Assembly (NCBI GenBank): GCA_964555735.1
Contig: CAZKTS010000288.1
Span: 1,069-65,068 of the forward strand
Length of the DNA stretch: 64,000 nucleotides
From: an uncultured Bifidobacteriaceae bacterium
Lineage (GTDB): Bacteria; Actinomycetota; Acidimicrobiia; IMCC26256; PALSA-555
Direction: 5' to 3'
Under the pieces are notes generated by a model. It made no database searches. It saw only the letters and a list, made by a program, of their open reading frames with translations, and had not been told where the DNA came from. Shown piece after piece: positions 4,237-36,351 of this stretch. The translations under genes and the position numbers were made by a program. Numbering within the stretch: position 1 is the first letter of the stretch; every line of letters begins with the position of its first letter.

Positions 4237-4239
4237 TCG

Positions 4240-4656
4240 ATGGGGCAGCTGACGATCGCGGGGACGCTGCTCGGTGGGCCGGTCCAAGTCGGGGCCGGCT
4301 TCCCGCAAGCGATCTACACGACGCAGCTGGCGCTCTCGCAGACGCCGCGGCCCTTCTCGAAGGGTTCGGGCGTCGTGCAGTCGACGGTCAACACGCCTTC
4401 GCCGAGCTACGAGCCGCTGCAGGGTGTGGGGCCGACCGACCGCGTGCGGTACGGCGACGTTCTCTATCTGCGGTGTGATGGTTCACTAGAGCTGCGCATC
4501 TCGCAGACCGATCCCTTGAACCCGCTCGGGCCGCCGCTCGTGCGGCTGCTCAACGTGCAGGGGCTTCAGATCATGGAGTTCCCGCCGTCGTCGCGACTCG
4601 TCTTGCTTGAGGCGCAGGGGTCGGCGACAGTAGAGTACGCAATCTTCGGATCCTGA
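4240..4656 (+). CDS. hypothetical head-module protein (138 aa)
   Basis: High-GC3 ORF in the operon between MuF and the scaffold. Confidence 0.55.
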   Translation: MGQLTIAGTLLGGPVQVGAGFPQAIYTTQLALSQTPRPFSKGSGVVQSTVNTPSPSYEPLQGVGPTDRVRYGDVLYLRCDGSLELRISQTDPLNPLGPPLVRLLNVQGLQIMEFPPSSRLVLLEAQGSATVEYAIFGS

Positions 4657-4670
4657 CAGGAGCACTGACC

Positions 4671-5348: not shown

Positions 5349-5383
5349 TCGTGCCGGGGCGGCACGGAGAGGCGTGGGAGAAC

Positions 5384-6142: not shown

Positions 6143-6158
6143 TCATCCGGCGCCGCGC

Positions 6159-6187
6159 TTGACGTAGCGCGCGCCGGCGCAGAGAAT
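6159..6187 (+). promoter_or_regulatory. sigma70-like promoter TTGACG-N17-GAGAAT upstream of the major capsid gene
   Basis: -35 at 6159-6164, a 17-nt spacer, -10 at 6182-6187. The -35 sits in the loop of an imperfect GC hairpin (6147-6177). Confidence 0.4.
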
Positions 6188-6271
6188 CAGTCAACCTAGT
6201 CGCGATACGCACACGCCGGCGGTAACGGGCGGAATCTCACGCGACGCAGAACCTTCACCGGAGATTCCGTC

Positions 6272-7648
6272 ATGGCAATCGCAGTCGCAATCCCTCCCAC
6301 CGTCGCAGACCTGATCCAGAAGGGTCTGATCGAGCGCGCGTTCCACGACGCGCTGGTTCCAAACCTGCAGTACCGCGCTGAGGCGTTCGTCGAGGAGTGG
6401 CCCGAGCACGCCGGCGATCAGCTGGTGATGACCCGCTCGGGGGTGCTGCCGACCATCACGGAGCCGCTGACGCCGGGTGTCGACCCGATCCCGCAGGCGC
6501 CGCTCAACGAGCAGTGGATCGCGAACCTCGTGCGCTTCGCCGGCGCGGATGACGTGTCGACGCCGACCAGCGCGGTCGCGGCGCAGAACCTCTTCCTGCA
6601 GAAGATCGCGGTGCAGGGCGTGCAGTCGGGCATGTCCGTCAACCAGATCGCGCGCAACGCCTACTTCAAGTCGTACCTGAGCGGCCAGACGCTCACGACC
6701 GCGGGGGCGCTCGCGGGTGCGACCACGATCACGGTGGCGGCGATCAACGGCTTCACGACCTCGCTGACGCTGACGCTGAGCGCGCTGCCGCAAAACGTCT
6801 CGCCGGTGACCCCGCAGGCGGTCACGATCGCGGGCGTGGCGAACACGGTGATCGGCGCCTTCCCGGCGGATCCGTCCGATCCCTTCGGGCCCGGGACGCT
6901 GCTGCTCGGGACGCCGCTCGTGGCTCCGATCGCGGCGCGCGCGGTGGTGCTCGCGGACGATCGCCCGCTGGTGCTGCGCGCCGGTGGCGGTGACAGCGTG
7001 GATGCGATCGCGGCGGGCGACATCCTCACGCTGCAGGACCTGATCAACGCGGTGAACCTGCTGCGTCAAAACAGCGTGCAGCCGCACGAGGACGGCTTCT
7101 ATCACGTGCACATCATGCCCGTCGGCAACAGCCAGCTCTTCGCCGACCCGGCGGTGCAGCGGCTCAACACGAGCCTGCCGGAGTTCGCGATCTACAAGGA
7201 GGCGTTCATCGGCACGCTGGCCGGCTTCATGGCGTCGCTGAACACCGAGTCGCCGACCCGGTTCAACAGCGGCCCGCTCACGGCGACCGGCGTGAACGCG
7301 CGCTACGCGCGCGGCATCGGCGGTGAGGTCGTGAACGACGGCGGCATCAACGTCGGGCGCGTGCTCGTGACGGGCCGCGCGGGGCTCTACGAGAAGTGGC
7401 TCCCGGGCACCGCGTACGTGACCGAGGCGGGCATCACGGGCAAGCTCGGCGCGTTCGACGTGATCAACAACGGCGTGCGGCTCAACACCGAGCGGATCGA
7501 TCTGATCTTGCGCGCCCCGATCAACCGGCTGCAGGACCAGGTCGGCATCGCCTGGCAGATCACGACGTCCTTCTCGACGCCGTCCGACAAGAGCAACGGC
7601 GGGCCGCAGCGCTTCAAGCGCGGCGTCATCGTCGAGCACGCCGCGTAA
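6272..7648 (+). CDS. major capsid protein (458 aa)
   Basis: Follows the scaffold gene. It has its own sigma70-like promoter, a leader with GGAG, and a structured region or terminator downstream. The size is typical for a capsid protein. Confidence 0.7.
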   Translation: MAIAVAIPPTVADLIQKGLIERAFHDALVPNLQYRAEAFVEEWPEHAGDQLVMTRSGVLPTITEPLTPGVDPIPQAPLNEQWIANLVRFAGADDVSTPTSAVAAQNLFLQKIAVQGVQSGMSVNQIARNAYFKSYLSGQTLTTAGALAGATTITVAAINGFTTSLTLTLSALPQNVSPVTPQAVTIAGVANTVIGAFPADPSDPFGPGTLLLGTPLVAPIAARAVVLADDRPLVLRAGGGDSVDAIAAGDILTLQDLINAVNLLRQNSVQPHEDGFYHVHIMPVGNSQLFADPAVQRLNTSLPEFAIYKEAFIGTLAGFMASLNTESPTRFNSGPLTATGVNARYARGIGGEVVNDGGINVGRVLVTGRAGLYEKWLPGTAYVTEAGITGKLGAFDVINNGVRLNTERIDLILRAPINRLQDQVGIAWQITTSFSTPSDKSNGGPQRFKRGVIVEHAA

Positions 7649-7657
7649 TCGCGGCGT

Positions 7658-7756
7658 GGAGGCGGGCGGGTCGGAAGTGCCAGCCTTCGCTCCTTCGTGA
7701 GTGGGGCGCCTTCCGCCCGCCCCCTCGCTCTCGGGTGTCTCGCTTGCGAAGGAGCG
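7658..7756 (+). terminator. GC-rich nested stem-loops downstream of the major capsid gene (terminator/attenuator candidate); the outer arm pairs with the next gene's RBS
   Basis: GGCGGGCGG (7661-7669) pairs with CCGCCCGCC (7713-7721). CGCTCCTTCG (7688-7697) pairs with CGAAGGAGCG (7747-7756), which contains the AAGGAG RBS of the gene at 7766. There is no T-tract. Confidence 0.4.
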
Positions 7757-7765
7757 ATCTAATCA

Positions 7766-8515
7766 ATGCCGCTGAAGCGTGGAGCTAGTCGCGAAGCCGT
7801 GGCGTCGAATGTCGCTACGCTGGTGCGCGAGGGCTACCCGCAGAAGCAGGCGGTGGCGATCGCGCTATCTCAGTCGGGCAAGTACGAGGACGACCCGGAG
7901 GCGCAGCGCGACGCCGAGGCGCGCGCGTGGTGGAGCATGCCGCCGCTCTCGCAGTGGGCGAGCGCGCGCGAGCGGTTGCGCGTGGTGCCGGCCGAGCAGA
8001 AGACGGACTATTCGTGTGGGCCGGCGGCGCTGGTGGGCGCGCTGTCGGCGTTCGGCGTGACGGCGACCGAGGATGAGCTGGCGGCGGCGGCCGACACGTC
8101 GGCGGCGGCGGGGACGTCGGCGGCCGGACTGATCGCGGCGGCGGAGGGGTACGGGATCGACGGCCGGTGCGCGGTGGGGATGACGGTCGATGAGCTGGCG
8201 GGGCAGCTGCGCGCGGGGCGGATCGTGGTGGCGTGTGTGCAGGCGCCGCGTGCAGCGCCGGAGGCTCTCGACGCGCTAGGGGTGGACGTGTCGCACTGGG
8301 TGGTGCCGGTGGCGGTGCGAGACGGCCAGGTGGAGCTGATGGACCCGAGCGTGCCGGGGGCGCTGACTGCCATGTCGGTCGACGACTTCGAGGCGGGCTG
8401 GTACGGGTACGATGAGGGTGAGCAGTGGCACGGGTTCGGCGTGGTGCTCTCGGGGCCGACGCCGGCCAGGGCCGAGCTGGCGCTGCCGGTGGCCGTCTAC
8501 GGCCGACCCGGATAG
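7766..8515 (+). CDS. papain-like cysteine peptidase (C39-like) with a conserved N-terminal basic module
   Basis: Candidate Cys/His/Asp triad: TDYSCGPAALVGAL (Cys), DVSHWVVPVAV (His), LMDPS (Asp). The N-terminus reads EGYPQKQAVAIALSQSGK. AAGGAG RBS. Confidence 0.7.
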   Translation: MPLKRGASREAVASNVATLVREGYPQKQAVAIALSQSGKYEDDPEAQRDAEARAWWSMPPLSQWASARERLRVVPAEQKTDYSCGPAALVGALSAFGVTATEDELAAAADTSAAAGTSAAGLIAAAEGYGIDGRCAVGMTVDELAGQLRAGRIVVACVQAPRAAPEALDALGVDVSHWVVPVAVRDGQVELMDPSVPGALTAMSVDDFEAGWYGYDEGEQWHGFGVVLSGPTPARAELALPVAVYGRPG

Positions 8516-9260: not shown

Positions 9261-9689
9261 ATGCGCAAGCTGATCGGCGTGCTGATGGTATCCGCGGCGG
9301 TCGCGCTCGCCGGGTGCGGGGCGGCGCTCGACGACGTGGTGCTGCGCGACGTGAAGGTGGCGGCCAACGGCGCGGCGCTGACGCTGGAGGCGACGCTGTC
9401 GGCGGCCGAGCTGCTCTATGAGGCTGAGCAGCGCGCGGCGGTGGACCGGGTGATCGCGGCGGGTGGCGACAAGGCGGCGGCGACTGCGGCGGTCGCTGCG
9501 GTGCGCGAGCGCTGGGCGCCGGTCAAGGTGCTCTTCTCCGATGCGGTGAAGGCGCATGGCGAGGTGGCGGCGCTGCTCGCGCAGGGCGCCTCGGTCGTGC
9601 GCGTGGTCGAGGCTGGGAACGAGTTCGCCGCGAAGCAGCGGCAGATCGTGGACGCGCTGCGCGCGGCTCGCGAGCGGATGGGGAAGTGA
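9261..9689 (+). CDS. lipoprotein (moron-like) inside the structural module
   Basis: The N-terminus MRKLIGVLMVSAAVALAGCG is a signal peptide plus lipobox (LAGC). It has its own GTGATAGGCT box 7 nt upstream. Confidence 0.7.
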   Translation: MRKLIGVLMVSAAVALAGCGAALDDVVLRDVKVAANGAALTLEATLSAAELLYEAEQRAAVDRVIAAGGDKAAATAAVAAVRERWAPVKVLFSDAVKAHGEVAALLAQGASVVRVVEAGNEFAAKQRQIVDALRAARERMGK

Positions 9690-9692
9690 GCC

Positions 9693-9911
9693 ATGGGTGA
9701 CCTTCACAAGCTGATCGAGTTCGTGCGGTTGCTGGTCGGTAAGCATCCCGAGCTGTACGGCCAGGTCCGCGACGTGCTGGTCGAGTTCGAGCGCGTGGGG
9801 CACGCGGACGAGATCCGGGATCTGATCAAGCAGGTTCGTCCCGCGCACTTCGACGAGATCGACGCGCGGGTGGATGCGGCAATCGAGCGCGAGTTCGCGC
9901 GGAAGGGCTGA
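9693..9911 (+). CDS. hypothetical protein (72 aa)
   Basis: High-GC3 ORF in the operon. Confidence 0.5.
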   Translation: MGDLHKLIEFVRLLVGKHPELYGQVRDVLVEFERVGHADEIRDLIKQVRPAHFDEIDARVDAAIEREFARKG

Positions 9912-9916
9912 ACGGC

Positions 9917-10213
9917 ATGGCGCAGATCGTCTTTCTCCGGCAGTACACGTCGACTCAGGCGGGCGGGCTGCCGCTCACGATGCGGCCCGGCGACGTCGTG
10001 AGCGATACGGACATCACGGCGGCCGAGTTCGCGACGCTGCGCACGGCGGCGCTGGCGGTGCTCGCGGCGGCGGACTACGACGTGCCGGCGATGCAGCCGG
10101 AGCTGCAGGCGGCGCAGCTGCAGGCGGTCGCGCAGCGACTCCGCGCGGTGCCGGACGACGCCGTGGCGGTCGACACGATGCAGCCGGGGCTGATTCGCGA
10201 GCTGCAGCCTTGA
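9917..10213 (+). CDS. hypothetical protein (98 aa)
   Basis: High-GC3 ORF in the operon. Confidence 0.5.
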   Translation: MAQIVFLRQYTSTQAGGLPLTMRPGDVVSDTDITAAEFATLRTAALAVLAAADYDVPAMQPELQAAQLQAVAQRLRAVPDDAVAVDTMQPGLIRELQP

Positions 10214-10217
10214 GCCG

Positions 10218-10769
10218 ATGCCGCGCGTTCGCCCGCTCCAACCGTTCCAGGCGAAGCGGTCGCTTGCGAACCGGCTGAGCCCGACGGTCGATCGGCTGCG
10301 GCAGCTCGCGACGAACCTCGGGCTGCGGTCGCGCCGGGTGTTCCTCGTGTGGACGACCTTCGATGGTGGCCAGCGCGGCGAGGGCGATGAGCAGCTGATC
10401 GCGAAGATCGAGCTGTTGCCTACGCCGAAGGTGAGTGAGCTGGTGGGGCAGCAGTTCCTCGGCTACGCGGGCGGCGTGTTGCCGACCGGGTCGTTGCGGA
10501 TCGAGAAGGTCAGCGCCGGCTTCACCGAGGCGCAGCTGATGGGGCGTGAGATCCCGGGCGTGCCGGGGCTGACCACGATCCCGCAGCCGTATGATTTCTT
10601 CTACGAGATGATCGAGGACGGGCGCGACCTGCTGCGACCGATCCCGATGCGGTATCGGATGTTCGGATCGCCCTATCGCAAGGAGGGCTCGGTCAGCTGG
10701 ACGCTGCTCTTGGAGCGCCAGCAGGAGGCGCCCAACGTCAACGAGCGGCTGCCGTTCGCGCCGACATGA
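10218..10769 (+). CDS. hypothetical head-tail joining protein (183 aa)
   Basis: Position only. Coupled (ATGA) to the next gene. Confidence 0.5.
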   Translation: MPRVRPLQPFQAKRSLANRLSPTVDRLRQLATNLGLRSRRVFLVWTTFDGGQRGEGDEQLIAKIELLPTPKVSELVGQQFLGYAGGVLPTGSLRIEKVSAGFTEAQLMGREIPGVPGLTTIPQPYDFFYEMIEDGRDLLRPIPMRYRMFGSPYRKEGSVSWTLLLERQQEAPNVNERLPFAPT

Positions 10770-23098: not shown

Positions 23099-24439
23099 AT
23101 GGCGATGGCCATGGCGAGTGCGCGAGAGTTGGCGGCGGCGTGTCAGGCGGTGCCGTGCACGGCGGTTCCTGTGCGGCTCGCGGACGGGCGCGTGGTGGAG
23201 TTCTGGGCGATGAACGACGCGGCCAAGGTCGCGGGCGTGCGGGCGATGGTATCGGCCAACCTCGCGCAGCAGGCGGCCGACCTGTGCGGGATGATGTTGC
23301 CGACGGCGCGCATGGTCGATCTGATCGTGGACGCGGCCACGATGCTGGTGGACCCGATGCCGATGCCGATCAGCGCGACGCCGGAGGCGGCGGTCACTCA
23401 TTCGCGCCGAGTGGATACGGCGGTCGGCGCGGCGCGCGGGCTCCTGAGCAACGTGGGCAAGTGGTGGGTGATCGATAACAAGCTGTCGATCGCGCACGGC
23501 CGGGCGATGAACTACGGGTGGCACGTCCGCGCGAACCCTTGGCGCGGGATCGCGACTCACCCGGCGGTCAGCGGGTCATGGCGTGTGATCCAGCCGGCGG
23601 CGACGGCGCACAACGGCCTGCACTACGACTACTCGCAGACGCTGCGGCTGGTGCGGCGCGAGTGCACGCTGGACGGAGAGCCGGCGGACCTCGCGCAGCT
23701 GCTGGCGGATCCGACCTGCGCGGCGGCGCTCACGACGTGCGGCCCGATGGTGATCACGCGCCAGCCGGGGGTGGAGCCTCCCGGGGTGGTGGTGCTGCCC
23801 GAGGTGGTGATCACGGCGAGCCCGCCGAAGCCGGTGGCGCCGAAGCCGATGGTGGCGGCGGTGGCGGCCGCGCGGGCGGCGATGGGCGACTTCGAGGACA
23901 TCCGCTTCGTGCCGACGCGGCAGCGCACGGCGGCGCAGCGCCGGCCGGACCAGATCCGGTGGATCGTGCTGCACACGGCCGAGACGGGCGAGGTGCCCAA
24001 CGCGGCGGAGAACCTCGCGGCGTGGGTGGCGGGGCCGCAGGCGCCGCAAGCGAGCTGGCACTTTGCGGTCGACTGCGACTCGATCGTGCAGAGCGTGCGG
24101 CTGTGTGATGTGGCGTGGCACGCGCCGGGCGCGAACCGAGATGGCATCGGGATCGAGCAGGCGGGGCGCGCAGCGCAGGGCGGCGTGCAGTGGGAGGACG
24201 ACTACTCGACGCGGATGCTGGAGCGCACGGCGCAGCTGGTGGCGCGGCTGTGCCGGCTGACGGGGATCCCGGTGGTGCGGCTCGGGCCTAGCGATCTGGT
24301 GCGTGCGGGGACGCGCGGGGTGTGCGGGCATCACGACGTGACGCTGGCGTTCATGAAGTCGACGCACACCGATCCGGGCGCGGCGTATCCGTGGGATCGA
24401 GTGCTCGGGCGGGTGCGTGATCTGCTGGCGGGTGGGTGA
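23099..24439 (+). CDS. N-acetylmuramoyl-L-alanine amidase (Amidase_2/AmpD-PGRP type) with a ~250-aa N-terminal domain of unknown function
   Basis: The C-terminal domain reads IRWIVLHTAETG ... WHFAVD ... AWHAPGANRDGIGIEQAG ... VCGHHDV..KSTHTDPG. The start could be ATG 23099, 23105 or 23111. Confidence 0.85.
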   Translation: MAMAMASARELAAACQAVPCTAVPVRLADGRVVEFWAMNDAAKVAGVRAMVSANLAQQAADLCGMMLPTARMVDLIVDAATMLVDPMPMPISATPEAAVTHSRRVDTAVGAARGLLSNVGKWWVIDNKLSIAHGRAMNYGWHVRANPWRGIATHPAVSGSWRVIQPAATAHNGLHYDYSQTLRLVRRECTLDGEPADLAQLLADPTCAAALTTCGPMVITRQPGVEPPGVVVLPEVVITASPPKPVAPKPMVAAVAAARAAMGDFEDIRFVPTRQRTAAQRRPDQIRWIVLHTAETGEVPNAAENLAAWVAGPQAPQASWHFAVDCDSIVQSVRLCDVAWHAPGANRDGIGIEQAGRAAQGGVQWEDDYSTRMLERTAQLVARLCRLTGIPVVRLGPSDLVRAGTRGVCGHHDVTLAFMKSTHTDPGAAYPWDRVLGRVRDLLAGG

Positions 24440-25677: not shown

Positions 25678-26582
25678 GTGGGTGGGGCTCGGGCTACTGG
25701 GGCGCCGGGCCATGGGGCGCGGGTGGCATCGACGCGCTGCGCATGCTCGGCGCTGAGGCGGTGCGCGAGAACGTGGTCCGCGTGACGTTCAACGCTGCGC
25801 CGCTGTTCGATCGGCTGCTCGGGCCCAACGATGCTAGCGACCCGAAGCGGTTTCAGATCGTGGCGGACGTCTTGACGATCGGGCGCGACGGCGAGCCCGC
25901 GCGGCCGGTGTTGCCGGTGCTGGTTGAGGTGGCGCCGATCGAGCTGTCGTTCGGCGCGGTGCTCGATGTGACGACGGACCGGCCGCTCTCACCCTGGCCG
26001 ACGTACTACCGGATTTCGGCGACGCAGCTCGTGGTGGCGGCGACGGGCGGGCTACTCGACCCGGCGGCGAGCAGCCGCGAGTTCCAAGGGCTGTATCGGG
26101 AGCTGCGCGTGCCGACGACGGCGATCGCGACGCCGAGTCAGGACGTGGCGAGCCCGGCGGCCGGGTTCGACGTCGTGCCGGGGCTGCCGGCGCTGACGCC
26201 GAGTGATGAGGAGCTGCAGCTCGGGACGTACGTGCCGGGCGATGATGGCGACTACGCAACCGACTCGGGGATCGCACAGCTGCGCAAGCGGATCTTCCGG
26301 CGGTTTGTGACGGCGCCTGGTGCGTTCGCGCACTTGCCGGGATACGGGCTCGGGGTCCGGTCGTACGGCAAGCGGCTGGGGACGGCGGCGGTGCGTCAGC
26401 AGCTGGTCGCCACGGCGATGGCGCAGCTGCGCGAAGAGCCGGACGTGGTCGCGGTGAAGGTGCGCGCTGAGACGGACGCGCGAAACCCGAGCATCACGCG
26501 GTTCTTTGTCGACGTGAAAGCGGCGGCCGCGCCCGACTGGGTGACGTTCGACTACTCGTTTGGAGGGACTGGAAATGGCTGA
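25674..26582 (+). CDS. baseplate wedge protein with C-terminal gp25/GPW-like domain
   Basis: GTGA overlap. The C-terminus RKRIFRRFVTAPGAFAHLPGYGLGVRSY ... LREEPDVVAVKVRAE ... ITRFFVDV resembles GPW/gp25. Lies directly upstream of the J-like gene. Confidence 0.55.
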   Translation: MSGWGSGYWGAGPWGAGGIDALRMLGAEAVRENVVRVTFNAAPLFDRLLGPNDASDPKRFQIVADVLTIGRDGEPARPVLPVLVEVAPIELSFGAVLDVTTDRPLSPWPTYYRISATQLVVAATGGLLDPAASSREFQGLYRELRVPTTAIATPSQDVASPAAGFDVVPGLPALTPSDEELQLGTYVPGDDGDYATDSGIAQLRKRIFRRFVTAPGAFAHLPGYGLGVRSYGKRLGTAAVRQQLVATAMAQLREEPDVVAVKVRAETDARNPSITRFFVDVKAAAAPDWVTFDYSFGGTGNG

Positions 26583-27699
26583 CTTCCCGACGCGGCTGGA
26601 CTTGTACGCGATCGGCCGCGACTACGTCACGCAGCGGGCGCGCAAGATCGATCCGGTCCAGGTCGACATCTCCGGCAGCGACATCAATCTCTATGTGGGG
26701 ATCGCGAGCTACGTGGGCAGCGCGGTGGTGCTCGCGCTCGTGCAATCGATCAATTCGCTGCTCTTGAACGGCGCCTACCGCGAAGACCTCGATCGGTACG
26801 CGCTCGATCGCTACTCGAACCAGGTGCCGCGCAAGGGCGCCGCGGCAGCGCGCGGCTTCGTGACGATCGCACGGCCGACGGCGGCGGCCGGTGCTGGATC
26901 GATCCCGCTCGGGACGCGGCTGCTGACGCTCTCGGGCGTGGAGTACACTACGGTCGCGGACGTCAGCATGGGGGGCGCACAGCTCACGCTGACGAATGTG
27001 CCGGTCCGCGCCGCGCAGGCGGGCAAGTCGAGCCAGACGGGCGCAAACACGATCCGACTCTTCGGCGACCTCGGCGCGCTGTGGGACCAGACGCTGACGG
27101 TGACCAACCCCGAGCGCACGGCGAACGGCGAGGACGCCGAGGAGGACGACGTCTACCGCGAGCGGATCCGTGCCTACTGGGGCGCGGCGCAGCGCGGGAC
27201 GCTCGCGGCGATCGAGTTCGGCGCGCGCAAGGTGCCTGGCATCACGAGCGCGCTGGCCGAGGAGGTGATCGATCCGACCGATCCCAACAAGCCCGCGCGC
27301 GTGGTGAATCTCTACATCGCCGACTCATCCGGCGTGGCGTCGGCGGCGATCGCGGCGGAGGTGCTGGCCGAGCTGCGCGAGTGGCGCGCTGGGGGGATCG
27401 CGGTGATCGTCAACACCAGCGTTCCGGTGATCGTCGACGTGCAGCTGCATCTGACGTTCGCGGCCGCGGTCGACACGACGTCCTTGACGGGGACGATTCG
27501 CGCGGCCGTCGCGGACTACATCAACAACCTGGGCGTGGGGCAGACGCTCTATCGCGCGGCGATTTACTCGGTGCTGCAGCGCTACACGCAGAACGGGCTG
27601 ATCGTAAACACGGCCAGCGTGGTGAGCCCGGCGGGCGACGTCGTGCCGGAGATCGGGCAGGCGTTGCGCACGCGATATGAAAACGTGGTGGTGGTCTGA
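26575..27699 (+). CDS. baseplate J-like protein (P2 gpJ / Mu gp47)
   Basis: SGSDINLYVGIASYVGSAVV ... REDLDRYALDRY..VPRKGAAAARGFVTI is a Baseplate_J-type pattern. ATGGCTGA overlap. Confidence 0.75.
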   Translation: MADFPTRLDLYAIGRDYVTQRARKIDPVQVDISGSDINLYVGIASYVGSAVVLALVQSINSLLLNGAYREDLDRYALDRYSNQVPRKGAAAARGFVTIARPTAAAGAGSIPLGTRLLTLSGVEYTTVADVSMGGAQLTLTNVPVRAAQAGKSSQTGANTIRLFGDLGALWDQTLTVTNPERTANGEDAEEDDVYRERIRAYWGAAQRGTLAAIEFGARKVPGITSALAEEVIDPTDPNKPARVVNLYIADSSGVASAAIAAEVLAELREWRAGGIAVIVNTSVPVIVDVQLHLTFAAAVDTTSLTGTIRAAVADYINNLGVGQTLYRAAIYSVLQRYTQNGLIVNTASVVSPAGDVVPEIGQALRTRYENVVVV

Positions 27700-29552
27700 T
27701 GCCGGCGCGCGGCGCGTTGACGCGCGACGAGCTGTTCCAGGTGTTGCGGTCGGTCGTCGACCCTGAGTACATCGAGCCCTTCCTGCTGCGCGGGTACGAT
27801 TCGGGGCTCGAATCGCTGGAGATGCTCTGCGAGGTGCTCGCGCGTGTATCGCAGTCGATCGACCGCTCGACGCAGCGGCTCTACATCGAGCCATGGAGCG
27901 GACAATCGGATGGGCCGGCGGTGGGCGCGGCGCTGGCTCGGATCACGCTGCGGCTGCAGCGATCGGCGCGCTTGAATTTCCCGCTCACGATCACGGCGGG
28001 CGAAGTGATCTTCGAGGAGATCGCAACGGAGGCGGGGGCGACGGGTGGCGTGCCGGTCGCGACGGGGCGCCGGTACACGATCGAGCACGACGTGACGTTC
28101 TTGCCCGGCGAGCCGGGGCCGATCGACGTGCCGGCGATCGCGCTGCGCCCGGGGTACACCGCGGGGCGCGTGCTGCCGGGGACGGTGACGGGCATCCTGC
28201 AGCCTGGGGCGGGGCTCTCGAATGCGGGCGCGAGCGTGGTGCAATCGCCGCCGGCGTCGCTGCTCGTGCTGGCGCCGCAGCCGGACGTCATCGCGCCGCA
28301 GCAAGTCGGGCAGATCGTGGAGCTGGTCGGCGGCGCGAGCGCGGGGCAGCAGCGGCGCGTGAGTGCATACGAGCGGGCGACGCTGGGCGCCGGCGGTAGC
28401 GTGCAGCTGGCGCCGGAGGTGGTCGTGCGCGCGGTGGCGACGGCGCCGGTCGGGACGTTCGAGCCGGGCGAGACGGTGCGCCAGGTCGACACGGCGCTAC
28501 CGGCGCCGGGGGTCATCGCCTCGGGCGTCGTTCTGGCCGCCACGTCACCCGCAGCCGGGCCGCCGTGGTGGCTGGTGGTGCTGCAGCAGACCGGCGCCTT
28601 CCAGCCGACGGCGGGCACGGTGGGGCCGCTGACGGGCGTGCTGTCCGGCGCCACGTTCGCGCTCGAAGACATCTCGCAGGGGCCGACCCTGGCGAGTGAG
28701 GTGCGGTCGGCGGTGTGGCGCGTGCTGACGTGGGGTGATGACCTCGGGCTGACGGTCACGAACGTCGGCGAGGGGTTGCCAGGCGAGCTGGCGACGCTCG
28801 ATGAGCTGGGGGCGGAGCGCGGCGTGTACCGGGCGCCGGGCGAGACTGACGAGAGCTACCGCGAGCGGGTCTATCACCCGGCGGACGTGGTCAGCCCGGA
28901 TGCACTGCTGCGCACGGCGAACCGCATCCTGGCGCCGATCGGCCTGCAGGCGTGCTTGCGCGAGGTGGGGCAAGCGAAGTTCCGCGGGCTGTTCGCCGAC
29001 GGCGACCCGCTGAGCACCGATCGAGCGGTGGCGTTCGCGTATGACATGGACGGCGTCCGATTCACGGGGCCGCAGGTGGGATTCTTCATCGAGGGCGAGG
29101 TGGTCACGCAGCAAGCGGGGCCGGGTGCGCCGATCGCTCGCGGGCGCGCGAGCGTGGTCCCGGCGGGCGTGCTGGTGGGCGTCTCGCGAGTTGAAGGGCA
29201 GTTCGTGCCTGGCTTCAACGCAGTCGGGTCGGTGAGTGGCGCGCTGGTGGTGGTGGCCAGCGCGGTGGGCGGGCCGAGCCCGCTCGACCGCTGGCGGGTG
29301 GTGCTCGATTACGAGCGATTCCGCGCGTACTTCGAGATCGGTGTGCCGCGGGTGCAGCTCGGCGACTTCGGCGTGCCGTTCGATCAGCACCCGCACAACG
29401 CATTCGACGCGGCGCCCTATCTGGCCGGGTTCGACGGGTTCCCGGTGACGGGCGCGGTGTTGATGCGGTCGATCTGGCAGGCGATCGACCGCGCGCGCGC
29501 GGGCGGTGTCGGGTTCGACCTGTACGTGGAGACGACGGGCTGTCTCGGGTGA
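27699..29552 (+). CDS. baseplate/fibre-adaptor protein (617 aa), function by position only
   Basis: Coupled to the J-like gene and precedes the fibre genes. Confidence 0.4.
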   Translation: MPARGALTRDELFQVLRSVVDPEYIEPFLLRGYDSGLESLEMLCEVLARVSQSIDRSTQRLYIEPWSGQSDGPAVGAALARITLRLQRSARLNFPLTITAGEVIFEEIATEAGATGGVPVATGRRYTIEHDVTFLPGEPGPIDVPAIALRPGYTAGRVLPGTVTGILQPGAGLSNAGASVVQSPPASLLVLAPQPDVIAPQQVGQIVELVGGASAGQQRRVSAYERATLGAGGSVQLAPEVVVRAVATAPVGTFEPGETVRQVDTALPAPGVIASGVVLAATSPAAGPPWWLVVLQQTGAFQPTAGTVGPLTGVLSGATFALEDISQGPTLASEVRSAVWRVLTWGDDLGLTVTNVGEGLPGELATLDELGAERGVYRAPGETDESYRERVYHPADVVSPDALLRTANRILAPIGLQACLREVGQAKFRGLFADGDPLSTDRAVAFAYDMDGVRFTGPQVGFFIEGEVVTQQAGPGAPIARGRASVVPAGVLVGVSRVEGQFVPGFNAVGSVSGALVVVASAVGGPSPLDRWRVVLDYERFRAYFEIGVPRVQLGDFGVPFDQHPHNAFDAAPYLAGFDGFPVTGAVLMRSIWQAIDRARAGGVGFDLYVETTGCLG

Positions 29553-29564: not shown

Positions 29565-30470
29565 ATGGCACGGTTTGGGCTGCTGAATACGGTCACGGTG
29601 ACGCCGGGCGTGACGCTGGCGCCCGGTGCGGTGGTTGATGACCCCAAGCTGGTGCAGGCGGCGAGCGCGGCGGGTGGCGTGCTCGTGTCGGTCGACACGC
29701 CTACGGGCGCTGACGCGGTCGAGGTCGCGCGGCGATTCGCCGATCGCGGCGATAGCCTCGGCGGCAGCATGGCCGGGATCGGGCGCCTGGCGGTGGCCGG
29801 CGGTGGCGGTGGTGGTGGCATCTTCAGCCTGGCGCGTGTCGACTGCTCGGTGAACGCGGCCTACGTCGAGGCGCCGTACAGCGCGAGCCCGGTGCTGCAC
29901 ACTCGCGCGGGCGGCAACGCGGTCGGCGGCTACAACGGCACCGGGGTCGGCAACAAGTGCATCCTCGGATTTGCGGCGGGCGTGGGCACGGCGATCGGCG
30001 CATGGACGGGGCTGCGGTGGACGTGGCTGGACTTGGCGCCGGCGACGCCGGGTATCGGGTGCTACTCGAACCAGATCGTCAATCTGGGCGGTGGGACGAT
30101 CAAGGTGTTCGTGGTCGACCCGGGCGCCAACCCGGCGCTGAATAACGGCGTGACGGTGATCAACGGCGATGGGAGTCGAACCACGACGTTCGATCCGGCC
30201 GTGCACTTCGTGACGGTGGTGAATGACGTGGTGGGCGTGGTGCCGGCGGTGGACCTCGGCGGCAGCTGGACGGCGCGCAGCTACCGCGTGAGCGACATCC
30301 TGGCGGTCTACCCGGGGGCGGTGTTCGCGAACGTGGCCAGCGGAGACGGTGGGATGCCGGCGACGCCGGTGGCGACTCCGCCCGTGCTGATCGTGACCGG
30401 CGACAGCACAAATAACCGGGTGCGCGCGTTCCGCCTGTCGGCGGTCGAGTTCAACGGCGCGGCGGTGTGA
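29565..30470 (+). CDS. tail fibre/spike A (301 aa): shared N-terminal module + poly-Gly linker + distinct C-terminal domain
   Basis: About 85 N-terminal residues are paralogous to the protein at 33631, followed by a GGGGGGG linker. ATG lies 6 nt after GTGATAGGCT. Confidence 0.55.
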   Translation: MARFGLLNTVTVTPGVTLAPGAVVDDPKLVQAASAAGGVLVSVDTPTGADAVEVARRFADRGDSLGGSMAGIGRLAVAGGGGGGGIFSLARVDCSVNAAYVEAPYSASPVLHTRAGGNAVGGYNGTGVGNKCILGFAAGVGTAIGAWTGLRWTWLDLAPATPGIGCYSNQIVNLGGGTIKVFVVDPGANPALNNGVTVINGDGSRTTTFDPAVHFVTVVNDVVGVVPAVDLGGSWTARSYRVSDILAVYPGAVFANVASGDGGMPATPVATPPVLIVTGDSTNNRVRAFRLSAVEFNGAAV

Positions 30471-30477
30471 TCGGCGT

Positions 30478-30487
30478 GTGATAGGCT
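30478..30487 (+). promoter_or_regulatory. class-L box GTGATAGGCT, 7 nt before ATG 30495
   Basis: gtGTGATAGGCTcggtcgcATG. Confidence 0.55.
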
Positions 30488-30494
30488 CGGTCGC

Positions 30495-32120
30495 ATGTCA
30501 TCCGGTGGCAAGCGGCTGGTCCTGAATTTCGAGGAGCGCATCATCTCGCCCGATGCGAATCGGGCGCAGGCGTTCCAGTCGGCGCAGATCGCGGAAAGTG
30601 CGCGGCAGCTGTTCTCGCCATCAGAGAACGTCGACGTCTTCTCAGCGCAGCCGACGCCGGCGACGGTGACGGCTCCGGCTGGTGGTGCGGTGCTCAACGG
30701 GCTGATGGTCGTAGCACCGCTCGGGTCGCTGGAGCTGGCGGTGACCTCGGGCATGGCGCTCCTGATCGATCCCGACGGGCAGCCGGGCTCGACGGTGTTG
30801 ACGCCGGCCAACCCGGACGACTCGATCGGCAAGCTGTGCTACGACGCCGTCGGCGTGCTCGCGGGCAGCGGCGTGCTCGTGTTCATCCCGAATGGCTCGG
30901 GGCTCGTGCGCGTCGACGTGGTCGAGATCCAGCGCGACCCGGGGGCGGTGCTGGAGATCGACAATCGCGACATCTTCAACCCCGGGACCGGGCTCTTCAC
31001 GCCGGCGACGGTCGACAAGGTCGCGGCGGACGGGGTCGTGTACCGGATCCGTGCGGGTGTGCCCGGCGGTGGCGTGCCGGCGTCGGTGCTCGGGTGGATG
31101 CCGATCGCGGTGGTCAGCGTGCCAAGCGGTGCGGCCAATTTCGACGCCTGCACGCTGTACGACGTGCGACCGCTCGTGAGTGACCGAGGGCCCGGGTCGG
31201 GCGCGCTGCTTGGTGGGCCGCTGACGTCGCGGACGCGCGTGGGCGACTTCTACGTCGATCCGACGACTACGCCGGGCGCGCTGATCATGAGCGGCTGGGT
31301 CGATGGGCTCGCGCAAGGTGCGCGCGCGGGCGGCGTCTTCGGCGGGTTCAACCTGCGCGATGTGGCGAACCAAGAGCCTGGGTTCGCAGTCGTGGCGAGT
31401 ACGCTGGTCGCGGTGTGGCTGCTGTTTCCCGGCGGCCTGCCGCGGTGGGTGCGGTACTCGACGGTCGCCTCGCCGCCGTTCGGCGGCCGCGTGCCCAACG
31501 GGCCGCGCGGGATCATGGTGCTCTCTTCGACGCTGCCGCTCTCCACGGCGCCGCTGCCGAGCGCGCCGGTCAACCCGCCGCCTGCGAGTGGGCTGGTCGG
31601 GTCGCTGACATCGGAGGCGCTGCTGGTCGGCGTGCTCGCCAATTCGTCGACGCCGGGGGTCGCCGGGTGCGTGGCGAAGTGCGTGGACGGGCGCACGACG
31701 TTCGGGCAGGCGCCGGGCGTGGGGATCCCGGTGCTGCTGCCGGTAGTCACGCCGGCGGCGTTCTCGGCGGCAGTGGCGCTGCAGTACGGGCTGACGGTGC
31801 CAGCGGGGGTCCGCGCGGTGCTGCTGAACGCGACGTGCGACATGACTGGAGTACCCGCGACGCCGTTCAACTACCAGCCGAGCATGGGCAGTCAGCGCTT
31901 CCCAGTCGGGAACGAGATTTTCGTCGGCGAGGCGAACACTATCGCGGCGCAGACCGACGGCGCCGGCGTCGTACAGCTCGGCCAGACGCGGTGGGTCGAT
32001 CTGATGGTCGACCGCTCGAACATCCAGCCCGTGCTTCAGGTCGCCAACGTAAACTGGCTGCAGGCGGCCGGCGTCATCAAGAGCGCCGATGCCGCGGCGG
32101 TGCTCGGGTGGGAAGTGTGA
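30495..32120 (+). CDS. tail fibre-module structural protein (541 aa)
   Basis: Position only. ATG lies 7 nt after GTGATAGGCT. Confidence 0.45.
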   Translation: MSSGGKRLVLNFEERIISPDANRAQAFQSAQIAESARQLFSPSENVDVFSAQPTPATVTAPAGGAVLNGLMVVAPLGSLELAVTSGMALLIDPDGQPGSTVLTPANPDDSIGKLCYDAVGVLAGSGVLVFIPNGSGLVRVDVVEIQRDPGAVLEIDNRDIFNPGTGLFTPATVDKVAADGVVYRIRAGVPGGGVPASVLGWMPIAVVSVPSGAANFDACTLYDVRPLVSDRGPGSGALLGGPLTSRTRVGDFYVDPTTTPGALIMSGWVDGLAQGARAGGVFGGFNLRDVANQEPGFAVVASTLVAVWLLFPGGLPRWVRYSTVASPPFGGRVPNGPRGIMVLSSTLPLSTAPLPSAPVNPPPASGLVGSLTSEALLVGVLANSSTPGVAGCVAKCVDGRTTFGQAPGVGIPVLLPVVTPAAFSAAVALQYGLTVPAGVRAVLLNATCDMTGVPATPFNYQPSMGSQRFPVGNEIFVGEANTIAAQTDGAGVVQLGQTRWVDLMVDRSNIQPVLQVANVNWLQAAGVIKSADAAAVLGWEV

Positions 32121-32503
32121 CCACGCCGAGCGATGCGCTGCTCGCGGCGCGCGATCTGTCGCGCATCGCGCTTGCATCGGCCACGACCTTGCAAGACCCG
32201 GTGTCTCGCACCCTGGACGACTTGGCGCGCCGCGCAGGCACGACCCGCGCGCTGGTGGCGACCGCGTGCGGCGTCGACCCTCTGCTGTTCGAGCGCGTCG
32301 ATCAGGGGCGGCAGCCGATGCCGCTATCGGTGGTGGTGTCGATCGCGTCGTTGCTGCGGATCCCGATGTGGATGGCGCGCGCGGCGTGCCGGTCGTGGAC
32401 CGACCAGATCGACGCGCGGCTGCGCAACCCGAAGCCGCCGCGCCCCATTCTCGGGGATTCGTTGCCGGCGGTGTCCATCGTGGCGACGGTGCCGCAGCCT
32501 TGA
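32117..32503 (+). CDS. XRE-family helix-turn-helix protein (128 aa)
   Basis: GTGA overlap. RTLDDLARRAGTTRALVATACGVDPLLFERVDQGRQPMPLSVVVSIASLLRIP fits the Cro/C1-type HTH pattern. Confidence 0.6.
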   Translation: MTTPSDALLAARDLSRIALASATTLQDPVSRTLDDLARRAGTTRALVATACGVDPLLFERVDQGRQPMPLSVVVSIASLLRIPMWMARAACRSWTDQIDARLRNPKPPRPILGDSLPAVSIVATVPQP

Positions 32504-32513
32504 CGGGACCACG

Positions 32514-32840
32514 ATGGAGGCGCGCGCTGTAGAGCTGCTCGGGTCGCTGGGGTTGCCAGGGCTGGTCATCGGCGGCCTGTGGCTGTACGCGCGGCAGCTG
32601 CACCTCCGCAACGAGCAGATCATGGATCTGCGGCTGCGTGAGGCGCAGGACTATGCCTCGGTGCTGCGGGCTATCGACGAGACGCGCGTGCGTGAGGAGC
32701 GCGAGCGTGGAGATCGGATCTTGGCGGTGCAGCGCGAGGTGCACGCCACGATCAAGCAGCTGACGATGTTGGTGGAGCGCGAAGAGCGCCGCGACGATCG
32801 CCTAGACCGCCGCGGGTCATGGAGACAGGACGATGAATAA
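32514..32840 (+). CDS. N-terminal TM + charged coiled-coil protein (holin/BhlA-like or i-spanin-like architecture)
   Basis: LLGSLGLPGLVIGGLWLYA is a TM segment, followed by REAQDY...REERERGDRILAVQREVHATIKQL. Confidence 0.5.
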   Translation: MEARAVELLGSLGLPGLVIGGLWLYARQLHLRNEQIMDLRLREAQDYASVLRAIDETRVREERERGDRILAVQREVHATIKQLTMLVEREERRDDRLDRRGSWRQDDE

Positions 32841-33030
32841 CCAACGCACGATCGCGGACGTGGCGCGTGAGATGGAGATCGAAGAGGAGTCGGCGCGGCT
32901 CGAAGCGCGCGCGCGTGCACTGGTGGCGCGTGCCGCGGCGCTCCTCGACGGGCAGGCGCGGCGTCAATCCGGCCAGCATCGGCTCGATCTACCGCCGGAA
33001 ATGATGGCGCTTCGCAAGCCATCGGCCTGA
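32833..33030 (+). CDS. hypothetical small helical protein (65 aa)
   Basis: Overlaps the upstream stop. High GC3. Confidence 0.4.
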   Translation: MNNQRTIADVAREMEIEEESARLEARARALVARAAALLDGQARRQSGQHRLDLPPEMMALRKPSA

Positions 33031-33040
33031 GTGATAGCGT
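33031..33040 (+). promoter_or_regulatory. class-L box GTGATAGCGT, 8 nt before ATG 33049
   Basis: gaGTGATAGCGTttcgggccATG. Confidence 0.5.
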
Positions 33041-33048
33041 TTCGGGCC

Positions 33049-33282
33049 ATGGCAAGTGTGTTCATGGCTCTCGCGCAGTCGCGCAAGGCGTGGGTGGTGC
33101 TGGCCGCGGTGGTCGGCGTGATCGTGATGAATGTCACGGGGCGCGTGCCGGGCGAACGCGCGCTGGACTTCATCAAGTGGATCGTGATGACGTGGCTCGG
33201 CGCGCAGGCGGCCGAGGACGCCGCGGGCAAGCTGCTCGTTCCACCCAAGAGTGGCGGCGATGAGACTGGCGGTGTCGAGTGA
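33049..33282 (+). CDS. two-TM small membrane protein (class II holin-like)
   Basis: ATG 33049 lies 8 nt after GTGATAGCGT. Hydrophobic segments AWVVLAAVVGVIVMNV and FIKWIVMTWLGAQAA, with a charged C-terminus. Confidence 0.5.
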   Translation: MASVFMALAQSRKAWVVLAAVVGVIVMNVTGRVPGERALDFIKWIVMTWLGAQAAEDAAGKLLVPPKSGGDETGGVE

Positions 33283-33626
33283 GCCGCGCGATTCACATCG
33301 TGACGGCGGGCGGCGCGGTTCTGCCGGTCGACACGTCGCCAGTGTCGGTCGAGCCGCCGCGTGAGCGCGTGTTCCCGTTCGTGCGGTCGCCGACGGGTGC
33401 CGATGCGCTCTGGCTGGGTGCGATCGGCGGGTCGTGCACCGTGGAGCTGTGGGCCAAGGACGGCGCGGACTGGTTCGCGGCGACTGCGGTGCCGGTGGTC
33501 GTGCCGGCGAACCGGCTCGCGCTCGGGTTCGCCGGGCTGATCGTGCCGCAGGAGCTGCTGTACTTCGTCCAGATCACGGCGAACGCGGGAGCCACGCAGC
33601 TCCGCGTCGGAACGATCTACAGGTGA
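33279..33626 (+). CDS. hypothetical protein (115 aa)
   Basis: GTGA overlap. High GC3. Confidence 0.5.
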   Translation: MSRAIHIVTAGGAVLPVDTSPVSVEPPRERVFPFVRSPTGADALWLGAIGGSCTVELWAKDGADWFAATAVPVVVPANRLALGFAGLIVPQELLYFVQITANAGATQLRVGTIYR

Positions 33627-33630
33627 CCCC

Positions 33631-36351
33631 ATGTTGCTCGCGCTGCTGAATCAGGTTTCGATTTCGGGCACGACGCTCACGCCTGGCAGCGTGATCGATG
33701 ACGTCGCCGACCCGCAGCTTGCGGGGGCGGTGCTCGAAGCGGGCGGCATCCTGGTCAACCTGGGGACGCTCCAAGGGGCTCGCGCGGCGGACCTCGCGCA
33801 GCGCTTCGCGCGGCGTGGCGACACGACCGGCGCGGCGATCGCGGGCATCGGCGCGATGCTCGGCGCAGGAGGAGGCGGTGGCGGCGGTGGCGCGTGCGCG
33901 TCGACGTACTCGGTCCCGAGCGATGACTACCCGACGATCGAGGCGGCGCTGGCTGCGGCCAACGGCGCGGCCGGGCCTGCGCAGCCGATCACGGTGATGG
34001 TGTGCCCGGGGACGTACGTGGTGACGTCGACGCTCGACATCACGAACCCCTACGTGGACGTCACGGCTGAGAGCGAGGTCAGCGCGTTCGTGCTCGCGGC
34101 GCCGGGCGTCTCGCCGCTACTGCGCGTGAGTGCGCCGCCCGCGCTCGATGCGGTGCGCGTGCGCGGGCTCGTGCTGATGCGCTCGGATGCGGGCGTGATG
34201 CTCGACCTGACATCGCAGCAGAGCGTCTTCGTGGCCGACTGCGTGTTTCTGCGCACGGCGGCGTCTCCGGGCATCGTCTGCGTGCAGCAGTCGGCGTCGA
34301 CGTTCACGGTCCTGGAGCGGTGCTTCGTGGGGATCGATAGCGGCGGCCTGCCGTCGGGCTCGGCGTTCGTGGTGACGGATGGCCAGCTGACGCTGTCGGA
34401 CTGTCAGATCCAGGACGCGCTCGGATCGAGCGTGACGGGGCCCGGGTCGGCCGTGACGCTGAGCCGGTGCCTGATGCAGTCGGCGGCGACGGCGCAGGCG
34501 CTGCTGGTCACGGGCGGCGCGCGCTTGGACGCGAAGAGCCTGCAGCTGTTCGCGCCGAGTGCGGCGGCCGGCGTGGTGCTGAACGGCGCAGCGACGGGCG
34601 ACCTGGAGAGCTGCTCGATCAACGGCGACGCGCCCGCCGCTGCTGGTGTGCGCGCGCTGGGCTCGGCGTCCGTGCGCGTGCGCCTGAGCCAGATCCGGGC
34701 TGACGTCGGTGTCTACGGGGGCGGCGCGGTCGTGGAGCTGGAGTCGGTGCAGTACGCGACGACGACGGCGCTGCCTGGCGTGATGCTGACGGCCTCGGCG
34801 GGCGTGGCGCGTGCGCTGAATTGTGTCTGCTACCCGCCGCACATCCCGCTGGTGCAGTCAGCGGGTGTACCGTGCGCGATGCTCTGGGGCGAGCTGGCGA
34901 TGCAGAATGCGCTGATCGCGACGCCGCTGGATGTGCGCTGGGTCACGAGCGCGACGGCGGAGCTGGAGGTGCAGCACCTCAACGGGTCGTGGGCGAGCTT
35001 CGCGATCCGGTCGCCATACACGCCGACAAGCCCGAGCGACCCCAACGGGGCCGTGGGTGCGATCAATTGGGGCGACTCGACCACCCATCCGCCGCTGCTG
35101 AGCGTGCGATCGAGCACTGGCTGGGCCAGCGTGCCGATGGGCGGGGTAGCTGACCTCGCGAGCGTGACGGCGCTACCGGGGGCGTTGCGCCCTGGCGCCT
35201 CGGTGTGGTGCGCGGAGGTGCGCGCGTCATTCGTGCTGACTGACTTTGCGGCACCGCTCGCGGTCAACGGGGTCACGGTGCTGGCGACGGCGCTGGGCGG
35301 CAATACGCGCTGGGAGCGCGTGCAGGGTGGGCCGCAGTCGGATCTGGCGCTGTACGGCGACGGGCGAGACGGTGTCGCCACGATCAGCGCGCCGGTCACG
35401 CTGACGCGCGACATGTTCTACGCCGATCTGACCCTGACCCCGGGTGCCGCCATCACGACGGCGGGATTCGCGATCTACGTGGCCGGGGTGCTGGACCTCA
35501 GCACCGCCCCAGCCGGGGCGATCGCGCGCAGTGGCGCCAACGGCGCCAACGGCGCCACGGTGGGCACCGGAGGCGGCGCAGGCGCGGCTTTGGCCGCGGT
35601 GGCCACGGGGGGCTCTGGCGCGGGCACCGCGGGCGGTGCGGGCGGCGTAGCGGCCGGCGTGCAGGCTACGGCGCCGACGGCGCAGAACCCGGGCAACGGC
35701 GGCGTCGGCGGGCTCGGCGCGGCCGGCGGCTCGGGCTCGGGTGGCGCCGGCGGCGCGGCCCGCGCTGGCGCGGCGGTCACTGCGTACCCGCGGGGCGTGC
35801 TGACCACGCAGCTCACGCGAGGCGCGGCGATCATTCAGGGCGGCGCCGGCGGTGCCGGCGGTGGTGGCGGCGGCGGCGATGCGACCTCGGGCGGCGGCGG
35901 TGGCGGTGGTGCGAGCGGCGGCGGCGTGGTGCTGGTGTGCGCGCGCACGATCCAGAGAGGCGGCGGCACGGCGGCGGGTGCGATCCGGGCGCTGGGTGGC
36001 ACCGCAGGCAACGGCGGCTCGGCGACGGCGGGCAATCGCGGCGGCGGCGGTGGTGGTGGTGGTGGCGGCGGTGGGTGGGTGATGGTGATCTATGATCAGC
36101 TCATCGGTGCGGCCGCGCCGAATGCGGTGGCGTGCAACGGCGGCAACGGCGGCACGGGCGGCAACGGCTTCGGCACTGGTATCGGCGGCACGGGCGGCAC
36201 GGGCGGCGCCGGTGGGCGCGTGACGCTCATGTCGCCGCTGGTGGGCACGATCGCCGATTCGGTCGGTGGTGCTGGGTCGGCCGGCAGCGCGGGCGCTGGT
36301 ACGGTGGGCGGCGCGGGTGGTGGCGGTGCAGCCTTCGCGGTGACGCTATGA
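33631..36351 (+). CDS. tail spike/fibre B (906 aa): shared N-terminal module, beta-helix-like middle, extreme glycine-rich C-terminal region
   Basis: The N-terminus is paralogous to 29565. Residues ~100-400 show ~25-30 aa periodic V/L/C repeats like a parallel beta-helix. The last ~270 aa carry poly-Gly runs (G7, G7, G12) separated by short segments. Confidence 0.7.
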   Translation: MLLALLNQVSISGTTLTPGSVIDDVADPQLAGAVLEAGGILVNLGTLQGARAADLAQRFARRGDTTGAAIAGIGAMLGAGGGGGGGGACASTYSVPSDDYPTIEAALAAANGAAGPAQPITVMVCPGTYVVTSTLDITNPYVDVTAESEVSAFVLAAPGVSPLLRVSAPPALDAVRVRGLVLMRSDAGVMLDLTSQQSVFVADCVFLRTAASPGIVCVQQSASTFTVLERCFVGIDSGGLPSGSAFVVTDGQLTLSDCQIQDALGSSVTGPGSAVTLSRCLMQSAATAQALLVTGGARLDAKSLQLFAPSAAAGVVLNGAATGDLESCSINGDAPAAAGVRALGSASVRVRLSQIRADVGVYGGGAVVELESVQYATTTALPGVMLTASAGVARALNCVCYPPHIPLVQSAGVPCAMLWGELAMQNALIATPLDVRWVTSATAELEVQHLNGSWASFAIRSPYTPTSPSDPNGAVGAINWGDSTTHPPLLSVRSSTGWASVPMGGVADLASVTALPGALRPGASVWCAEVRASFVLTDFAAPLAVNGVTVLATALGGNTRWERVQGGPQSDLALYGDGRDGVATISAPVTLTRDMFYADLTLTPGAAITTAGFAIYVAGVLDLSTAPAGAIARSGANGANGATVGTGGGAGAALAAVATGGSGAGTAGGAGGVAAGVQATAPTAQNPGNGGVGGLGAAGGSGSGGAGGAARAGAAVTAYPRGVLTTQLTRGAAIIQGGAGGAGGGGGGGDATSGGGGGGGASGGGVVLVCARTIQRGGGTAAGAIRALGGTAGNGGSATAGNRGGGGGGGGGGGGWVMVIYDQLIGAAAPNAVACNGGNGGTGGNGFGTGIGGTGGTGGAGGRVTLMSPLVGTIADSVGGAGSAGSAGAGTVGGAGGGGAAFAVTL

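Follow-up and report, generated by a model that had tools for sequence, protein, structure and literature searches.

A shared N-terminal module in front of two unrelated heads in the late genes of an uncultured contractile-tail phage

Why should one phage make two proteins that begin alike and then go their separate ways? The question is posed by a stretch of 64,000 nucleotides deposited under an uncultured Bifidobacteriaceae bacterium (NCBI GenBank assembly GCA_964555735.1, contig CAZKTS010000288.1, positions 1,069 to 65,068 of the forward strand), which we call the window. Two of its late genes, here named A and B, are the subject of this article. Gene A (29565..30470) encodes 301 residues, an N-terminal module followed by seven glycines and a beta-sandwich head. 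Gene B (33631..36351) encodes 906, with the module, eight glycines, a beta-helix-like body and a Gly-rich C-terminal extension. Both open reading frames (ORFs) lie on the + strand, as do all parts of A and B given below. A preliminary description of this DNA had noticed that the translated proteins resemble each other over some 85 N-terminal residues and then diverge completely; the ORFs and N termini are exactly as it quoted them. The start of A can be placed at the ATG at 29565 because an in-frame TAG lies at 29553. The gene's G+C content at third codon positions is 0.88, similar to that of its neighbours, and an identical protein is encoded on ten public contigs, the longest of 83 kb.

The likeness is real. 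BLASTP with composition adjustment aligns residues 4–80 of A with residues 3–81 of B at 39/80 identities (49%, E=2e-11), MAFFT puts the identity at 51%, and outside the module BLASTP finds no other segment of the two proteins below E=1. Against shuffled sequences, a check the preliminary description had itself named, the two modules align with a Smith–Waterman score of 165; when the residues of both are shuffled 5000 times the score is 32 ± 6 (z=21), and 0/5000 shuffles reach 165. The similarity spans ~78 residues, close to the length first described. In A it covers residues 1–78 (29565..29798), with a hidden Markov model (HMM) match over residues 1–80; in B it covers residues 1–79 (33631..33867), delimited by an HMM match and an AlphaFold2 model. 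Then comes the glycine: seven residues in A (79–85, 29799..29819), where the predicted local distance difference test (pLDDT) of the model falls below 50, and eight in B (80–87, 33868..33891), where it is ~33. The poly-glycine hinge that had been described is there in both proteins, but the module family as a whole does not conserve it, and P0005, the counterpart of B in another phage, is without it.

Could one gene simply be a recent copy of the other? The module occurs exactly twice in the 64-kb window, and neither tblastn nor an HMM of ten family members finds a third copy there. At the DNA level the two copies are 61% identical, their third codon positions are saturated (48% identical), and A and B have no DNA repeat in common beyond GGN low complexity. 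The divergence is therefore old, which rules out a recent tandem or segmental duplication and an assembly artefact alike. The module of A is also about equally distant from B (51% identity) and from P0005 of the other phage (49%), so no recent duplication within the genome is indicated.

Beyond the window the module is rare. Word-indexed protein searches returned almost nothing; success came only with an exhaustive profile search covering 1.84 billion representative proteins. Besides A, this search matched four proteins from residue 1 to about 75–80, namely P0005 (490 residues), P0011 (233), P0017 (186) and P0013 (80, the module alone), while many further multi-stretch matches to Ala-rich repetitive proteins were discarded. 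Additional members are P0022 (81 residues) and a 223-residue protein in L017, bringing the family to ~8 members among 15 billion proteins. In every member the module is N-terminal and begins at Met1; what comes after it is one of at least five different bodies, or nothing at all. P0023 gives a weak match (13.5 bits) to a module HMM built without it, and the match of P0024 is not significant; both are possible carriers of a distant module. In L017 (531-1446), which belongs to another lineage, two module genes are adjacent, the 80-residue P0013 and, directly downstream, the 223-residue protein, which starts with a second copy of the module, so two such domains in one genome are not unique to the window.

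Conserved positions of the module are L-L-N near the start, G-x-V-x-D-D, A-G-G-x-L and R-G-(D). The last is the best conserved motif (29745-29753 and 33814-33822 in the window), reading RGD in A, B, P0005 and P0017, and its R-G is invariant across most members. An AlphaFold2 model built from nine sequences gives residues 1–78 of B a compact alpha/beta fold of order b-b-b-b-a-b-a-a, with pLDDT 82–95, followed by the disordered glycine run. Neither A nor B matches Pfam, PHROG or NCBIfam at E<=0.1. A profile search of the PDB with the module returned Ala-rich designed coiled coils alone, sequence searches of the PDB gave no match for A and only non-significant ones for B, and fold searches of the PDB and BFVD with the B model yielded nothing attributable to the module above weak beta-helix matches. 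The module is a discrete, previously unannotated N-terminal domain family.

What follows the glycines is quite different in the two proteins. The head of A (residues 91–301, 29835..30467) is a beta-sandwich in an AlphaFold2 model with pLDDT ~90, and it has a family of its own: at least 21 proteins, 36–67% identical, that align over this part of A only. Their N termini are unrelated to one another, ranging from ~10 to 140 residues, and many carry a GGGG-type linker immediately ahead of 'RVDCSVN', the conserved start of the head. The closest relative of the head is P0024 of L015 (67% identical). In other phages the head gene is the last of a + strand block, and in L001 it comes two genes after a baseplate-hub/lysin-like protein. 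With the head found behind several unrelated N termini and the module in front of at least five bodies, the junction is a genuine swap point, and the earlier suggestion that the hinge marks a clean boundary for domain exchange is supported. Foldseek matches of the head are weak: CBM11/28/30, legume lectins, GH11 and BoNT Hc appear, none with E<1e-3, at template modelling (TM) scores of 0.25–0.45, and the best in the PDB are CBM11, CBM28, a legume lectin and GH11. As modelled, the head of A probably binds a surface glycan.

B is another matter. Its residues 1–520 are collinear with the entire P0005, which occupies the corresponding position in the related phage L007. The body (residues 88–520, 33892..35190) consists of repeated short strands and looks beta-helix-like in a model whose pLDDT is only 50–80. 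Its best fold matches are all right-handed beta-helices, these being Geobacillus virus E2 ORF18, the tailspikes of P22 and an Acinetobacter phage, and pectin methylesterases, and in BFVD there are tail fibre, tailspike and pectate-lyase entries. The scores are weak (E at least 3.5e-3 in the PDB and at least 6.8e-4 in BFVD; range 7e-4 to 1e-2, TM ~0.2), and there is no match to Pfam Beta_helix or Pectate_lyase. If the modelled fold is right, the beta-helix of B probably binds or cleaves polysaccharide. Beyond it lies an extension (residues 531–906, 35221..36348) that the alignment shows to be absent from P0005 and that has no PHROG match. These 376 residues are extremely Gly-rich, with runs of up to 12 G, and are encoded by imperfect GGN repeats. 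The preliminary description had spoken of different receptor-binding or enzymatic heads. The bodies are indeed unrelated, that of A lectin- or CBM-like and that of B tailspike- or pectate-lyase-like, but the functional labels must be tempered by fold matches that are weak throughout.

A clue to what the module does comes from the gene next door. Immediately before B, ending 4 nucleotides short of its start, is a gene for 115 residues (33279..33626, + strand). Homologous 115-residue ORFs occur in L007 (9646-9993), 7 nucleotides before P0005, and in L012 (4017-4364), where the ORF overlaps the start of P0017; BLASTP E-values within this family of three (window, L007, L012) are 2e-18, 2e-8 and 6e-12. 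The three proteins encoded downstream have the module alone in common, so the linkage points to a functional pairing of the 115-residue protein with the module, of which it is most likely the socket or assembly partner. Only one gene of this family is present in the window, which means that A would have to share its product with B. A partial ORF at the window's start (1-165), considered as a second member, has no significant similarity to the family. A distant member of 165 residues lies upstream of the portal gene in L018 (511-1008), a contig binned as Methylocystis sp., beside a member of a separate '180-aa family' (L018 2-544). In another lineage it is this second family (pairwise E=1e-13 to 1.5e-23), in place of the 115-residue one, that flanks the module genes, in L011 (639-1196) and L017 (1481-2020).

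How, then, might the two proteins work? We read A and B as late, virion-associated host-recognition proteins, each made of a plug, a flexible glycine linker and a head. The ~78-residue module would be the plug, a small autonomous alpha/beta domain, running from Met1, by which the protein is anchored on the particle. Its most likely target would be the 115-residue protein encoded next to B, or a site it has in common with that protein. The heads would do the work, the beta-sandwich of A by binding a surface glycan and the beta-helix of B by binding or cleaving polysaccharide, with a Gly-rich distal part added. Gene A is an add-on, and would be a head from a family circulating among other phages, put behind the local type of plug. 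Since the plugs are paralogues within one genome, they would make parallel use of the same type of socket and give the particle two specificities. The branched fibre system first proposed is not indicated; two paralogous plugs suggest one kind of socket used side by side. A shared docking domain with exchangeable heads is supported; for the fuller reading, in which A and B are receptor-binding-type plug–linker–head proteins lending one particle two specificities, our estimate is a probability of about 0.55.

The place of gene A favours this reading. Upstream is the gene for a Baseplate J-like wedge protein (26560..27699, + strand; Pfam PF04865, E=3.7e-26; phrog_6, E=1.2e-36), followed by a conserved late gene for 617 residues (27699..29552, + strand) directly before A and another for 541 residues (30495..32120, + strand) directly after it. 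The two conserved late proteins are 53% and 57% identical to proteins of 602 and 546 residues in L007, and neither matches a family in Pfam, PHROG or NCBIfam. From Baseplate J onward the window thus reads 617-residue gene, A, 541-residue gene, five small genes, B and a UvrD-type helicase. In L007, whose core proteins are 53–70% identical to those of the window phage, the order is Baseplate J, 602 residues, 546 residues, five small genes, the 115-residue gene, P0005 and UvrD. The slot of gene A is empty in both L007 and L022, where the 541-residue homologue directly follows the 617-residue homologue, so A is a gene added in the window phage. L022 has some 5.6 kb of its own between Baseplate J and the 617-residue homologue (2800-8400) for which the window offers no counterpart. 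At the locus of B, identity between the window and L007 is 42% for the module and falls to 27% for the protein as a whole; better conservation of module than of body is the usual pattern of receptor-binding proteins.

Elsewhere in the clade module genes keep different company. L012, with portal, capsid and sheath proteins 56–60% identical to those of the window, has its cassette of 115-residue gene and module gene inserted between a MuF-like gene and the genes for the head, where the window has nothing. In L015 (portal 44–46%, MuF-like protein 60% identical) P0024 is encoded just upstream of the portal. Module genes occupy up to four positions within one clade. The location of these proteins on the particle cannot be read from gene position, which is weak evidence either way.

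Several observations weigh against the plug–linker–head reading. That A and B are incorporated into the virion is something we infer, and so are the socket, the tail location and the functions of the heads. The fold matches of both heads are weak, and the model of the B body is of low confidence. We found no similarity of the module to known anchor or adaptor families (T7 tail-fibre N-terminus, P22 head-binding domain, T4gp10-like branching domain), and the 115-residue protein has no match in Pfam, PHROG, NCBIfam or the PDB. A lacks a 115-residue partner gene of its own. B is separated from the baseplate genes by the five small genes, two of which encode membrane-like segments, and the module genes that lie among head genes, after the MuF-like gene of L012 and possibly upstream of the portal of L015, do not point to the baseplate. 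The common baseplate-docking domain of the preliminary description is thus upheld as an N-terminal module shared by unrelated bodies; its baseplate half is not, given those positions in L012 and possibly L015 and the missing match to a known anchor.

The likeliest alternative keeps the plug-and-head design and moves the socket to the neck, collar or capsid; A and B would then be whisker- or head-fibre-like glycan-binding appendages. The L012 cassette between MuF-like and head genes would suit it, as would the possible distant module gene just upstream of the portal in L015, the distant relative of the 115-residue gene upstream of the portal in L018, and the lack of contiguity between B and the baseplate genes. 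We nonetheless think it unlikely: gene A is inserted right after the Baseplate J and 617-residue genes, the head family of A elsewhere follows tail-hub-like genes, and a beta-helix body with tailspike-like matches is typical of tail proteins.

A and B might instead never join the particle: lysis would set them free as soluble late proteins, one a lectin and the other a depolymerase, with the module serving for oligomerisation or for binding the 115-residue protein. Soluble phage depolymerases have been proposed for proteins without anchor elements (PMC6872550), yet a conserved N-terminal globular domain with a linker is precisely the element whose absence prompted that proposal. Module genes vary in position as accessory genes do, and the inferred status of particle incorporation leaves some room here; A, on the other hand, lies inside the baseplate gene block, and the occurrence of the module on very small bodies (P0017, P0011) and alone (P0013, 80 residues) is hard to reconcile with a free enzyme. 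We regard this as distinctly improbable, more so than a socket on the neck or capsid.

Nor do we give much credence to the module as a loading signal, carrying variable cargo into the lumen of capsid or tail for ejection in the manner of MuF-linked or contractile-injection-system effectors. Its N-terminal place and its conservation ahead of variable C termini would suit such a role, as would the MuF-like gene adjoining the L012 cassette. Against this, Pfam, PHROG and NCBIfam detect no toxin or enzyme domains in these proteins, and their bodies resemble external binding or tailspike folds; a 906-residue B with a Gly-rich tail would be awkward cargo for a lumen. Polymorphic toxins and effectors are recognised by a C-terminal toxin domain (Pfam and NCBIfam find none) together with a downstream immunity gene, and here no downstream immunity-like gene co-varies with the C termini; the conserved neighbour is upstream and linked to the N-terminal module. 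Such a role is very improbable. That A and B look alike only through the shared composition of Ala/Gly-rich proteins from a genome of 70% G+C can be dismissed: the profile search did also draw multi-stretch Ala-rich matches and designed coiled coils in the PDB, but the composition-adjusted BLASTP (E=2e-11), the shuffles (z=21), full-length collinear matches starting at residue 1 in independent metagenomes and a confidently predicted fold all reject it.

There is a bolder way to put the plug–linker–head reading, which we offer tentatively and think less likely than not. The 115-residue gene and the module may form a portable socket-and-plug cassette, moving within the genomes of this clade among the end of the tail block, the neighbourhood of MuF-like genes and the vicinity of the portal. 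It would mount heads ranging from 95-residue knobs to an 830-residue body of beta-helix plus Gly-rich part, possibly at a site other than the baseplate, with gene A as a second plug sharing the single socket.

The phage behind these genes is itself a stranger. In the window, at ~70% G+C, essentially all genes lie on the + strand. Portal, MuF-like and capsid genes are present, assigned by synteny with L012, and the sheath is marked by a weak Pfam match to the sheath C-terminal domain. Sheath and Baseplate J-type wedge stand in one co-oriented block, the combination that defines a contractile-tail late cluster. The locus, the sheath, A and B have no match by megablast or tblastn among 50,697 deposited phage records; the nearest matches to deposited phages are those of Baseplate J to Bacillus and Halorubrum myoviruses, at only 27% identity. 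IMG/VR scans with B, the capsid protein and the 541-residue protein found no match. The clade to which this contractile-tail phage belongs is uncultured, high in G+C, deeply divergent and very poorly sampled. As to its host, an exact-match scan of genome representatives gave no match, and the only lead is a capsid protein 51% identical on a contig binned as Methylocystis sp.

A few other genes deserve mention. Among the hub and baseplate genes, a 446-residue protein (window 23099-24439) has a C-terminal Amidase_2 domain (E=2e-19) and is probably a virion-associated peptidoglycan hydrolase. Right after the capsid gene of L012 comes a Peptidase_C39-like gene (9570-10382), with a 42% identical homologue in the window (7766-8494), an unusual candidate for the prohead protease. 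Between the 541- and 115-residue genes (window 32117-33282) are four small genes, two of which (108 and 77 residues) encode hydrophobic, membrane-like segments; these might be lysis genes of holin- or spanin-like type that break into the late block. Four of the five small genes separating the 541-residue gene from B are without a PHROG match. The MuF-like protein of L018 (3514-6720) is 1068 residues long, against ~350 in the window and L012, and its long C-terminal extension recalls MuF-fused polymorphic toxins.

What is gained from all this is a previously unannotated N-terminal domain family, with a linked family of 115-residue partners, in this phage clade. If the docking role is true, the module provides a clean boundary for predicting, and later engineering, host range in the clade, and an added example of two receptor-binding proteins mounted in parallel by paralogous anchors. 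The conceptual gain is modest, since conserved anchors with swappable heads are already well established; the use lies in annotating this clade and in future engineering rather than in any conceptual surprise.

The design of an anchor plus a variable head is indeed well documented for phage receptor-binding proteins, and anchor, anchor-branch and adaptor architectures have been described for those of Klebsiella phages, coliphages and Ackermannviridae (PMC6872550). In anchor-type systems (T7 gp17/K1F-like; P22-type tailspikes), as would be the case for A and B, the protein is held on the virion by a conserved structural domain at its N terminus, and the centre and C terminus vary and are exchanged horizontally, leaving the N terminus more conserved than the body (PMC6872550; PMC12692247). 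A and B differ from these in having a module without sequence relation to theirs (no Pfam or PHROG match), a contractile tail, two paralogous anchors per genome and a small upstream partner gene. Anchor-branch dual systems (G7C gp63.1/gp66; the Klebsiella KP32/KP34 groups; TSP1-4 of Ackermannviridae) likewise place two or more receptor-binding proteins on a particle, and there too the extra receptor-binding gene interrupts a conserved synteny, as gene A does (PMC6872550). In those systems the second protein docks by a short conserved peptide on a T4gp10-like domain of the first, whereas A and B both carry the same ~78-residue globular domain. With that domain in both and no T4gp10-like domain detected, parallel rather than serial mounting is suggested.

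Phages Mu and P1 achieve two host ranges through invertible tail-fibre segments, in which DNA inversion joins a single constant N-terminal region to either of two variable parts. The likeness lies in an N-terminal attachment part common to two alternative distal parts; here, by contrast, both genes are complete and each has its own diverged copy of the module, and neither inverted repeats nor an invertase are to be seen in the vicinity. Another parallel is offered by the adaptor-based dual tailspikes of K1-5/K1E/SP6-like phages, reportedly described by Leiman et al. in 2007. Those phages are podoviruses, and the 115-residue protein has no detectable similarity to annotated adaptors, its adaptor role being deduced from gene linkage alone. 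Still, the socket for two different spikes could be a small protein with its own gene beside theirs, and the 115-residue gene fits such a role. Judged by their sequences, then, A and B belong to none of the domain families of the known anchor and adaptor designs, but would work as those designs do.

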